DNA of 64,000 nt from an uncultured Chlamydiales bacterium (GTDB lineage: Bacteria; Chlamydiota; Chlamydiia; Chlamydiales; JAAKFR01). Position numbers and translations under genes: made by a program. Location of the stretch: positions 523,757 to 587,756 of the forward strand of contig OY969414.1 in assembly GCA_963699155.1 (NCBI GenBank), given 5' to 3'. Numbering within the stretch: the first letter of the stretch is position 1; every line of letters starts with the position of its first letter. The notes under the pieces were generated by a model. That model was not told where the DNA came from, searched no databases, and was given only the letters and a program-made list of their open reading frames with translations. This document shows, one piece after another, positions 41,706-49,602 of the stretch.

Positions 41706-42068
41706 ATGGAAGAAAAGCAAGCAGTATTAACTTTTAAGCAAGTATTAATCTTGAAGGCTTTGAAGGATCCGGAGTTTAAGAAAAAACTATTAGAAGATCC
41801 TAAAAAAGCCATTCAAGAGGAGTTTCAAATCACTCTACCCGAAGATCTGAAGATCAACGTTTTTGAAAACCAGGAAAAAACAGTGAACCTCGTGATTCCT
41901 TATGCTTCTGGGGAACTTTCTGATGAAGAGCTCGAAAATTTGGCCGGTGCTGGTGCTTTGGACGACATAGGGAATTGGTTTAAAGCGCGGGGTAAGGATA
42001 TCTCTGACTGGGCCACAGATTGGTGGAAAAAGCAAGGGACAACTGTCAAGCCAACGTGGAAGCTTTAA
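41706..42068 (+). CDS. NHLP (nitrile hydratase leader peptide) RiPP precursor
   Basis: LILKALKDPEFKKKLLEDPK..LP..I.V.EN..LVIP..ELSDEELENLAGA leader; GGAGG RBS 5 nt before ATG 41706. Confidence 0.9.
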   Translation: MEEKQAVLTFKQVLILKALKDPEFKKKLLEDPKKAIQEEFQITLPEDLKINVFENQEKTVNLVIPYASGELSDEELENLAGAGALDDIGNWFKARGKDISDWATDWWKKQGTTVKPTWKL

Positions 42069-43339
42069 AGAGCTTTCAAAAGGTGGGTGCCGACTCGCTC
42101 GGCGAGAACGGTGGGGAGTGTGATCGATCCGTCACCATTCTGGTTGTTTTCGAGGAGGGCGACCATGAGACGGGAGGTGGCGAGACCAGAGCCATTGAGG
42201 GTGTGGACCAGCTCTGGTTTGCCCCCTTTTTCACGGTAGCGAATTTGGGAGCGACGTGACTGGTAGTCGGTGCAGTTGGAGATGGAGGAGACCTCGTAGT
42301 AGCGGTTTTGGCCAGGCAGCCAGACCTCGACATCGACAGTTTTGGCTGCGGTGAAAGACATGTCTCCAGTGACGAGCTTGGCGAGGCGGTAGTGGAGGCC
42401 AAGCCCTTTGAGGATCTCCTCGGCCACATGGATCATCTCTTCGAAGATCTGTGCGCTCTGGTCAGGTTTGGTAAAGCAGAACATCTCGACTTTGTTGAAT
42501 TGATGGACGCGGATGAGACCCCGTTCTTGAGTACCTGCTGCGCCCGCCTCTTTACGGAAACAGGGTGTATAGGCGGCATACTTGATGGGAAGCTGCTCCG
42601 CCTCGAGGATTTCATCGTAGTGAAGGCCATTGAGAACCACTTCTGCGGTTGGAATGAGGTAGAGTGGCTGCTCACGATCGAGGACTTCATAATATTGGCC
42701 ATCGAATTTGGGGATCTGTCCCGAGCCGAACATGACAGGCGGGCGGACCAAGATGGGAGGCAGCCAAAATTCGAAGCCATTGAGTTGCTGAATCTCAATC
42801 AGGTAGTTGAGAAGGGCCCATTCGAGCTTAGCGCCCATCCCGCGATAGGCGGGCCAGCCGCTGCCTGAGGTTTTTGCCGTGCGCTGGAATTCGAAGAGAT
42901 GGTGGATTTCATTCAATTCCACATGATTTTTGAAAGGGAAATTGAAGGTAGGTTTTTCACCCACAGTTTTGATGATGACATTATCGGCGGGAGACTGCGA
43001 CTCTTTCACATCCTCCATCGGGATGTTGGGAATGCGCGAAAGAGCATCGGTGAGGGCAGTTTCGCTGGTGGTGAGCTCCTGGTCGAGCTGAGTGATGCGA
43101 TCGCCGATAGTGCGCACCTGTTCCATCAACTGGTCGGCCGGCTTCCCCGCCCGCTTTAAATCGCCTACCTGCTTTGAGGAGTCGTTCCGCTCCGATTTCA
43201 GCCGCTCCACCTCTGTCTTGATATGACGGACCTTTTCATCAAGTTCCAGCACGGCAGAGAGATCGATCTCGGGCTCTTTTGCACGCAATTTAGCTTCAAT
43301 CCGTTCCCTATCTTTGCGAATTAACTTGATATCGAGCAT
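42065..43339 (-). CDS. serS: Serine--tRNA ligase
   Basis: MLDIKLIR, LIPTAEV, FRKEAGAAG, RVHQFNKVE, EVSSISNC, HTLNGSGLA. Confidence 0.97.
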   Translation of the reverse strand: MLDIKLIRKDRERIEAKLRAKEPEIDLSAVLELDEKVRHIKTEVERLKSERNDSSKQVGDLKRAGKPADQLMEQVRTIGDRITQLDQELTTSETALTDALSRIPNIPMEDVKESQSPADNVIIKTVGEKPTFNFPFKNHVELNEIHHLFEFQRTAKTSGSGWPAYRGMGAKLEWALLNYLIEIQQLNGFEFWLPPILVRPPVMFGSGQIPKFDGQYYEVLDREQPLYLIPTAEVVLNGLHYDEILEAEQLPIKYAAYTPCFRKEAGAAGTQERGLIRVHQFNKVEMFCFTKPDQSAQIFEEMIHVAEEILKGLGLHYRLAKLVTGDMSFTAAKTVDVEVWLPGQNRYYEVSSISNCTDYQSRRSQIRYREKGGKPELVHTLNGSGLATSRLMVALLENNQNGDGSITLPTVLAERVGTHLLKAL

Positions 43340-48790: not shown

Positions 48791-49602
48791 CAGGGATTCA
48801 TTCTCCAGATGGGGGTCACATAGGAGATCGGGGCCCGTGCATTCAAAACGAAAAGGGCTGTTCCTACATTTTGAGGGGGAATCGGCTCAGGTGGCCCCAA
48901 ACCAGACGTCCATTTCAACCCGCTTGCCGTATGGGCATCTTTCAACGGTTCTATCGCCACGATCATGGTGGGCTGATTTTCTGTAAAATAGTCGATGAGC
49001 GCCGGGTTACCCAGCAAATTGAGCAACTCATTTCTGGAGGCCACATAGGGAGAAACAGACTTAACAATGGCCTCGACGGAGCCATATTTTTGTGCATTCA
49101 CCCCTTCCGGTTTGATATAGACCTTCGTTCCACTCTTGATGTCGCTGCCCCTTTCAATCGGGATAAAGGCAAAGAAGAGAAAATTCCCTTCGCCTCTCTG
49201 GATTAACAATAAAGGATCGCCCGCATCGATGTGTGAACCAACCGTCGCATAGAAATCGACGACTTTACCCTTATGACTCGCCTTAGCTACCCACTTTTTT
49301 TCCTCTTGAGCAGTTACGGTGAGCAGTTCTTGCCCAGGCTCAACAGTGCTATTAACCGCTACACGCGCTTCCGTCACACTCCCCGCAATTTGACTCCGTA
49401 CGATTTCAAACCCTTGCTCATTCAAGAAGATCGTCTTTGTCTCATAAGTATTCGGAATCACCCCAAAGAAGGCCCAAATGACCAACCCCAAAACCAGCAT
49501 CCCTGTCAGCGCAAGCGCGATCCATCCCTTCGACCCCACCACAATCAGCCGCTTATCCAGCTCCTCAGGCGAGGTGACTTTTTCGAAAGCCTTCGTCTCC
49601 AT
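48790..49602 (-). CDS. NHLP-system HlyD-like secretion adaptor, short form
   Basis: SPEELDKRL..W.AL N-terminus, one TM, lipoyl-like halves, KYGS, SGLKWTSG, PISYV; start at METK after AAAGGGGG. Confidence 0.85.
   Translation of the reverse strand: METKAFEKVTSPEELDKRLIVVGSKGWIALALTGMLVLGLVIWAFFGVIPNTYETKTIFLNEQGFEIVRSQIAGSVTEARVAVNSTVEPGQELLTVTAQEEKKWVAKASHKGKVVDFYATVGSHIDAGDPLLLIQRGEGNFLFFAFIPIERGSDIKSGTKVYIKPEGVNAQKYGSVEAIVKSVSPYVASRNELLNLLGNPALIDYFTENQPTMIVAIEPLKDAHTASGLKWTSGLGPPEPIPPQNVGTALFVLNARAPISYVTPIWRMNP

Follow-up and report, generated by a model that had tools for sequence, protein, structure and literature searches.

Nitrile hydratase leader peptide (NHLP) precursors occur in 1-12 copies per genome (Haft, Basu & Mitchell 2010, PMC2887384), and the same paper describes their leaders as recognition handles for tailoring enzymes; its sole example from the 'chlamydia group' is Victivallis. 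In chlamydiae, biosynthetic gene clusters resembling those for peptides made by ribosomes and modified after translation (RiPPs) are mentioned at the antiSMASH level (PMC9666466), and a proteusin cluster has been predicted in a hydra symbiont (PMC13229535). Our literature searches for NHLPs in chlamydiae gave only these three papers, whose supplementary files may list such clusters. Here we describe an NHLP precursor gene and a nearby peptide exporter operon in a stretch of 64,000 nt, referred to as the window (positions 523757-587756 of contig OY969414.1, assembly GCA_963699155.1), from an uncultured Chlamydiales bacterium. On balance the sequence evidence leads us to consider it probable that a precursor and one out of two functional exporters in the window belong to a genome-wide NHLP peptide secretion system, which would do without tailoring enzymes and export its peptides in the manner of class II bacteriocins.

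Exporter and precursor of the window

The exporter operon encodes an HlyD-type short adaptor and two ATP-binding cassette (ABC) proteins, here called ABC1 and ABC2 (Table 1). The genes are contiguous and both junctions (adaptor/ABC1 and ABC1/ABC2) are TGATG. ABC1 and ABC2 score above the equivalog cut-offs for nitrile hydratase leader microcin (NHLM) export, and the translated ABC1 shows Walker A, signature and Walker B motifs. The adaptor is matched by TIGR03794 in two stretches and, because its hairpin region is missing, reaches only 143.2 bits, under the cut-off of 156.2. Compared with the long adaptors of a second exporter in this genome (locus B) and of congener G147, it lacks the ~130 residues that form the coiled-coil hairpin. 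By alignment the same deletion is found in four other short adaptors (two in congener G322, one each in the relatives G404 and G024), making five from 4 genomes in all, and the family scan yielded a sixth short adaptor, of 325 aa, in G159. In the AlphaFold model of the window adaptor (pLDDT 81.2) a membrane helix is followed by β-domains, and no helix is longer than the membrane anchor. A Foldseek comparison of this model with the PDB gave chains of BesA as the eight best matches (E-values of 6e-12 to 2e-10, TM-scores of ~0.5).

ABC1 carries an N-terminal peptidase domain of the C39 family, which we compared across 34 distinct chlamydial domains (30 from the search of our phylum sample plus four others, with one duplicate removed). 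The catalytic Asp is present in all 34, the catalytic Cys in 32 and the catalytic His in 33. The two domains with Ser at the Cys position are those of the window ABC1 (IESGAA) and of its syntenic ortholog in G322, and Gln at the His position occurs in the window protein only (LHQYLVV). The window domain keeps the oxyanion Gln and the Asp; since its catalytic Cys is Ser and its catalytic His is Gln, the window exporter probably cannot cut leaders. A search for related loci with the ABC1 protein gave two loci from non-chlamydial metagenome-assembled genomes, which were left aside. ABC2 begins at the TGATG junction and is without ~234 N-terminal residues that are present in all six other chlamydial ABC2 proteins that were aligned; the G322 ortholog aligns with it only from G322 residue 235 onwards. 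The N-terminal extension of the six proteins has no Pfam match at E ≤ 0.001, and the protein-atlas leads from it to cNMP-binding-like clusters are weak (below 0.9).

The window exporter is a derived paralog by virtue of its hairpin-less adaptor, its mutated C39 site and its truncated ABC2, and the reduced exporter suggested in a first-pass annotation of this DNA is in this respect borne out. ABC1, ABC2 and the adaptor are 62%, 50% and 45% identical to their G322 orthologs, respectively, and the values for ribD and serS, which flank the operon, are 62% and 79%. Because the frames are intact and coupled, the ATPase motifs are kept and the identity to G322 is comparable with that of the flanking genes, the exporter appears to be still under constraint.

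The cut site of the window precursor was set by alignment with the paralog at genome position 1509967 (...EAFAGG, then GILYDIG). The predicted cleavage motif is Gly-Ala (LAGA, then GALDD) at the end of the nitrile hydratase (NHase)-like region; Gly-Ala is given in PMC8277102 as an accepted cleavage variant of peptidase-containing ABC transporters (PCATs). The core contains no Cys and 13% Ser+Thr, is rich in Trp and Lys and has a net charge of +2. There is no Cys anywhere in the 120-aa protein, which is consequently without the metal-binding CxxCSC site of NHases. In a word-indexed search of 5.8 billion proteins, an index that is insensitive for short variable proteins, the precursor matched only itself.

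The first-pass annotation had described a 120-aa precursor with an NHLP leader ending ELSDEELENLAGA and, 2.4 kb away across serS and ribD, a TGATG-coupled adaptor-ABC-ABC operon. The leader model scores well above its cut-off, 2,359 bases separate the precursor stop from the ABC2 stop, the parts lie where they had been placed and the coupling is as described, the adaptor end given as 49602 being the first in-frame ATG. The transporter models that it had proposed as a check recover the two ABC proteins and leave the adaptor below its threshold. The adjacency itself is weak evidence of linkage: it may be due to chance, since rough arithmetic with 17 precursors in 2.4 Mb gives an expectation of a few per cent for one of them to lie within 2.4 kb of the exporter.

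Table 1. Features of the window (window positions) and the second exporter locus (genome positions)
Feature	Position	Strand	Details
NHLP precursor open reading frame (ORF)	41706-42068	+	120 aa; TIGR03793 leader_NHLP 69.1 bits, cut-off 50.9
NHLP leader region, residues 1-82, ends ELSDEELENLAGA	41706-41951	+	TIGR03793 match = residues 10-81
Predicted 38-aa core GALDDIGNWF...TWKL + stop codon	41952-42068	+	Cut site by paralog alignment
serS, seryl-tRNA synthetase	42065-43339	-	Housekeeping, outside the peptide system; TIGR00414 463 bits
ribD, riboflavin biosynthesis	43314-44462	+	Outside the peptide system; TIGR00326 338.7 bits, from residue 30
ABC2 permease/ATPase	44427-46637/46685	-	736 aa from TGATG-coupled ATG; TIGR03797 770.8 bits (cut-off 709.4)
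ABC1 peptidase/permease/ATPase	46637-48790	-	717 aa; TIGR03796 903.6 bits (cut-off 853.3); PF03412 Peptidase_C39 93.9 bits
HlyD-type short adaptor	48790-49638	-	282 aa from TTG, or 270 aa from ATG at 49602
Locus B exporter	genome ~2198500-2206500		Redoxin, TolC-like outer-membrane factor (OMF), adaptor, ABC1, ABC2

The genes between precursor and operon, serS and ribD, are both far above their equivalog cut-offs. The true start of ribD is probably near 43368, and its alignment to the G322 ortholog begins at residue 19. Directly upstream of the precursor lies a 505-aa ORF (40031-41548, -) with only sub-threshold TPR and UreE_C matches. Beyond the adaptor are two paralogous ORFs of 463 and 454 aa (49686-51077, + and 52429-53793, +) with common N- and C-terminal stretches; the N-terminal ones (…LFSFIPVGALF… and …VFTCLPIGEYF…) look F-box-like by eye only, and the 463-aa ORF has no Pfam or NCBIfam match. 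An Rfam scan of the window gave no match, and a promoter and terminator scan of 41400-49900 was uninformative, with seven promoter-like sites against 6.1 expected. Among public sequencing runs, three soil-metagenome DNA runs, all from a single study, contain small shares of this DNA, and no RNA run is listed.

Precursors, exporters and tailoring enzymes in the genome

The genome is a single contig of 2,399,326 bases, and a search of all of it with TIGR03793 gave 30 leader-domain matches in 17 ORFs, 16 of which exceed the whole-protein cut-off (the remaining one scores 49.3 bits). Four precursors have a single leader (119-136 codons from stop to stop) and the other 13 have two in tandem (180-206 codons). 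In 15 of the 17 a cleavage motif (12 GG, one GA, one AG and one DG) stands exactly at the end of the last leader and is followed by a variable, mostly hydrophobic core of 22-55 residues; two have no Gly-Gly-type motif. Thirteen of these 15 cores contain no Cys and two contain one, with Ser+Thr at 5-20%. Many of the cores consist of one hydrophobic helix and a basic tail, and across the set the leaders are conserved and the cores hypervariable. The cores at genome 897577 and 2090037 score above the cut-off (21.5 bits) of TIGR03949, the model of class IIb bacteriocins of the lactobin A/cerein 7B type, at 22.3 and 26.1 bits, respectively.

The 17 genes are dispersed, with housekeeping or unrelated genes within ~3.5 kb (hisS/aspS, tilS/ftsH, ileS, prfA, ruvB, zwf, tsaD, insertion sequence elements and an AcrB pump). 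No neighbour is common to all 17 loci, and inspection of the genes lying up to ~3.5 kb from the 16 precursors outside the window revealed no tailoring enzyme. A TolC-like gene next to the precursor at 62942 was set aside as part of an AcrB/adaptor/OEP operon. A leucine-rich repeat (LRR) and novel E3 ligase (NEL) protein, effector-like in character, is encoded at ~1040570-1043032 (+), directly upstream of the single-leader precursor at 1043171, and a LAGLIDADG endonuclease ORF (~2361642-2362220, -) lies ~1.3 kb downstream of an adjacent pair of double-leader precursors (2359234-2360355).

The model of one double-leader precursor (L011:6577-7104, -; pLDDT 81.2, pTM 0.72) has, besides a core of low confidence, two repeats that are modelled with confidence and consist of three helices and a β-hairpin each. 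It superposes on the whole NHase α and thiocyanate hydrolase γ subunits over 120-148 columns with TM-scores of ~0.5, so that the full NHase fold may be closer to the tandem form than to the single leader. When a library of 1.84 billion representative proteins, which carries no taxonomy, was searched with a profile of the 13 doubles, 7,197 hits reached E ≤ 0.001, of which 1,852 reached E ≤ 1e-10 and 24 reached E ≤ 1e-30. Among the best 150 of the 7,197 hits, most are 160-250 aa long and match across both domains, and a few have three or four leader domains. In the metagenomic proteins P0012, P0013 and P0017 an Arg/Trp-rich or Gly/Tyr-rich core comes after three or four NHLP leader domains. Tandem-duplicated NHLP leaders are abundant in metagenomic protein space. 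Other chlamydial families have doubles, too: in G114, in whose genome YcaO was not found, a run of five adjoins an OMF, a long adaptor, ABC1 and ABC2, and in each of G315 and G159 a single double, its core rich in Cys, lies next to YcaO/SagB.

Locus B is a second, complete exporter. It has a TolC-like OMF of 540 aa, a long adaptor of 434 aa (TIGR03794 199 bits), an ABC1 scoring 910.8 bits with TIGR03796, whose C39 domain keeps Cys, His and Asp, and an ABC2 of 1000 aa that is slightly under the TIGR03797 cut-off at 685.6 bits. The redoxin/AhpC-TSA-like gene (L023:896-1483, +; L034:2747-3334, +) precedes the TolC-like gene, an order kept in G147. On one side of the locus is a class D β-lactamase/BlaR1-like ORF (~2197071-2197844, -; 202 bits against a cut-off of 250) and on the other are IS481 and IS4 transposases. 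A possible third exporter is marked by C-terminal pieces of a further ABC1 and a further ABC2, which lie on opposite strands ~10 kb upstream of locus B. The genome contains 10 OEP-family genes, and no OMF gene is found in the window operon. The window pair, taken in the first-pass annotation for the export system as such, is accordingly only a part of it: 16 further precursors, a complete exporter with a TolC-like gene and the OEP genes stand beside it.

Tailoring enzymes were sought by six-frame family searches of the complete genome. YcaO (PF02624), LanC-like (PF05147; the lanthipeptide dehydratase families were not searched) and SPASM families gave no match. For SagB (TIGR03605; cut-off 78.4 bits) only a 30-bit, nitroreductase-like stretch was found, within a 2875-aa ORF; this stretch (256957-257694) lies ~10 kb from the precursor at 267825 and may represent an oxidase domain in a megasynthase. 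The 11 radical-SAM genes are without exception housekeeping equivalogs (MiaB, MtaB, RimO, MqnC, MqnE-like, HemN, HemW, LipA, two RlmN and EpmB). The one beside the precursor at 2090037, examined as a candidate tailoring enzyme, was dismissed, as it is MtaB at 453 bits. Within the window none of the YcaO, LanC-like, SPASM, radical-SAM or OEP/TolC families is matched. The genome thus contains no known RiPP tailoring enzyme, and the lack of a modifying enzyme noted at first for the window extends, for the families searched, to the whole genome. The label 'proteusin-type' does not hold: there is no radical-SAM epimerase and no SPASM domain, and the clusters of related genomes are of the thiazole/oxazole-modified microcin (TOMM) type, with YcaO and SagB.

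The survey of Chlamydiota that had been proposed as a check found NHLP leaders in 51 of 400 sampled genomes of the phylum (39 over the cut-off; none of the 24 from a genus with ~1-Mb genomes). YcaO was found in 35 of 401 and ABC1-type C39 domains in 67 of 401. Cross-reading of the tables shows YcaO in 17 of the 51 NHLP-positive genomes and not in the other 34, many of which are incomplete, with other enzyme classes not searched; these 34 suggest that NHLP leaders serve as simple export labels on peptides that stay unmodified. In both G147 and G322, the congeners of the sample, a fused TIGR03882+TIGR03604 cyclodehydratase (YcaO) and a SagB adjoin NHLP precursors. The G322 TOMM cluster lies between genes whose orthologs here are at 1517175-1517768 and 1518830, in a syntenic region (1507516-1523719) that is without the three genes of the G322 cluster. 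The 18 congener precursors that were read are all single-leader, with cores of 9-25 residues and Cys in all but two. In G404 one cluster unites a short adaptor and an ABC1 that bears the Cys with two 93-aa precursors, YcaO and SagB. As the congeners hold such clusters and the syntenic interval here lacks those genes, the simplest reading is loss: this lineage probably lost the YcaO and SagB that its congeners still keep.

The genome encodes two full copies of TLC nucleotide transporters, a member of the Pfam CT021 family, a CesT chaperone and an NEL/LRR protein, and its kin in the phylum sample include 24-25 genomes of ~1 Mb, all from one genus. The TLC transporters, CT021 and the small-genome kin suggest that the organism is probably energy-parasitic, chlamydia-like and intracellular, in agreement with what had been supposed at first. 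PF03504 (Chlam_OMP6) is uninformative, as it matched neither this genome nor the controls.

Weighing the explanations

In the reading that we favour, the precursors would be made with a folded NHase-like carrier, and the leader would be cut at the Gly-Gly or Gly-Ala motif by the intact C39 domain of locus B during export through the ABC pair, the long adaptor and the TolC-like duct. The peptides would leave unmodified, like class II bacteriocins, and the released cores would be membrane-active. The window exporter would either move peptides without cleavage, as HlyB does with its C39-like domain, or handle peptides already cut by locus B. A number of points weigh against this. BesA works with a TolC-type duct despite having no hairpin (PMC3807786), and the missing hairpin consequently does not show that the window exporter is uncoupled from the outer membrane or delivers to the periplasm. 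Some activity might be left in its Ser-bearing, His-shifted C39 site, and the Ser variant, being common to this genome and G322, has been retained for long. The two precursors without a motif do not fit cleavage, the window core has no family match in scans with Pfam- and NCBIfam-type models, bacteriocin families included, and no immunity gene was recognised near any precursor, such genes being small and poorly modelled. A tailoring enzyme of an unrecognised family may also escape family searches.

The quality of the assembly is a further point of this kind. The single-copy genes rpoB and rpoC (1237700-1245681) are split into at least two and at least five reading frames, and the genome has no second copy, which points to uncorrected assembly indels rather than pseudogenes. 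Since the assembly contains such indels, single-base features and pseudogene calls, such as the His-to-Gln change and the third-exporter fragments, have to be confirmed. Reading frame has no bearing on the absence of YcaO, on the adaptor deletion or on the ABC2 truncation, and the Ser at the catalytic position, unlike the Gln, is common to the window ABC1 and its G322 ortholog.

It is unlikely, though deserving of serious consideration, that the window exporter is a decaying or idle paralog, with locus B alone serving all 17 precursors and the window precursor lying nearby by chance. The joint loss of Cys and His, unique among the 34 C39 domains, would fit this, as would an ABC2 without the domain found in six of six relatives, an operon without an OMF gene and a genome that also holds fragments of a third exporter. 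G147 moreover does not have the window exporter locus, and the syntenic serS-ribD-exporter locus of G322 has no precursor. An idle operon is harder to reconcile with 5.2 kb of intact, TGATG-coupled frames that survive in an assembly with indel errors elsewhere, with the retained ATPase motifs, with a divergence from the G322 orthologs that is no greater than that of ribD and involves no stops, and with the conservation in G322 of both the Ser variant and the short adaptor. The remaining two alternatives concern the peptides. They could be products of a cryptic RiPP pathway, modified by an enzyme of the host or by one of a kind that has so far had no link to RiPPs, which we consider improbable: there is no YcaO, SagB, LanC or SPASM, the radical-SAM genes are all housekeeping, the 17 loci share no neighbour, the cores are almost without Cys and have 5-20% Ser+Thr, and two of them match TIGR03949, a model of unmodified bacteriocins. 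What speaks for such a pathway is the known role of NHLP leaders as handles for tailoring enzymes in PMC2887384, the two docking sites that a tandem leader could offer, and the double-leader precursors of G315 and G159, with their Cys-rich cores beside YcaO/SagB. It is more improbable still that the NHLP-domain proteins are not secreted antimicrobials at all but the bacterium's own tail-anchored or envelope-inserted proteins, or host-directed or signalling peptides. Hydrophobic helices with basic tails are what many cores consist of, an organism that is probably obligately intracellular has few bacterial competitors and two members have no cleavage motif; yet a Gly-Gly-type motif stands exactly at the leader end in 15 of 17, hypervariable cores behind conserved leaders are the usual bacteriocin pattern, and the precursors co-occur with C39 exporters here and are clustered with one in G114.

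Tailoring-free export of NHLP peptides is thus the reading that we retain. It can be extended into a more speculative account, which we think has little chance of being right: that a RiPP pathway for thiazoles/oxazoles was converted, inside a single chlamydial genus, into a system that secretes multiple peptides without tailoring, in which the doubled NHase-like leader would be a folded carrier keeping very hydrophobic membrane peptides soluble and export-competent, and two exporters would share the work, one cutting and having an outer-membrane duct, the other neither cutting nor having a hairpin and delivering uncut or pre-cut peptides only to the envelope or periplasm. If this were true, precursors with tandem leaders, of which our literature searches found no description, would be a large class of secreted peptides. 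Seventeen putative membrane-active peptides in an energy-parasitic, probably intracellular bacterium also raise the question of the target: competitors, the host or the bacterium's own envelope.

Comparison with known systems

Of the described systems, NHLP/NHLM (TIGR03793 with TIGR03794, TIGR03796 and TIGR03797), as presented in PMC2887384, is the one to which this system belongs. It has the same leader domain, Gly-Gly-type motif, variable core and paralogous expansion, and its exporter consists of an adaptor and two ABC proteins, only one with a peptidase domain, as in this genome. The differences from that account are that no TOMM or LanM enzyme is found here, heterocyclisable residues are not abundant in the cores, two leaders are present in 13 of 17 precursors, the window adaptor is under the cut-off and the window peptidase is without its Cys and His. 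The fused NHLP-Burk pairs of the same paper are two complete precursors joined, in contrast to the leader-leader-core arrangement here. The nearest clusters in the phylum are the TOMM clusters of G322, G147, G404, G159 and G315, two of them in the same genus, which use the same leader and exporter families, including the short adaptor; they hold a fused cyclodehydratase and SagB and short cores nearly all with Cys, whereas this genome has neither enzyme.

In the mode of export inferred here, the system resembles the class II double-glycine bacteriocins and their PCATs (for PCATs see the work on LahT150, PMC6363468), with no tailoring, a C39 cut at GG or GA on export and Gly-rich hydrophobic cores. 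Two paralog cores are over the cut-off of the class IIb model (TIGR03949); the window core matches no class II model. The leader here is a folded NHase-like domain of 80-150 residues rather than a peptide of 15-30 residues; as further differences, the organism has two membranes and no immunity gene was found.

For the parts of the window exporter, the closest parallels lie elsewhere. BesA, of the Borrelia burgdorferi BesABC system (PDB entries 4KKS, 4KKT and 4KKU; PMC3807786), has the same lipoyl and β-barrel domains without an α-hairpin as the predicted fold of the window adaptor. The two proteins have 12-13% identity, and BesA serves a resistance-nodulation-division (RND) pump, whereas the window adaptor would serve an ABC peptide exporter and is by sequence a relative of TIGR03794 with an internal deletion. 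The C39-like domains of HlyB-type type I secretion systems (PMC8277102) have an N-terminal C39 fold in which the catalytic Cys is replaced and bind their cargo uncut, as would be expected of the window domain. The replacement is Ser in the window and Tyr, Leu or Asn in the domains of that paper; ABC1 is otherwise a full TIGR03796 equivalog, its cargo family keeps the Gly-Gly motifs, and the loss of activity is predicted from the residues. A BesA-like adaptor together with a C39 domain without nucleophile would make a natural intermediate form linking PCATs, which cleave leaders, with HlyB-type transporters, which do not. The system genuinely belongs to the described NHLP/NHLM kind and leaves the basic classification unchanged; what it adds is tailoring-free use, tandem leaders, a hairpin-less adaptor subfamily and a Ser/Gln C39 domain.

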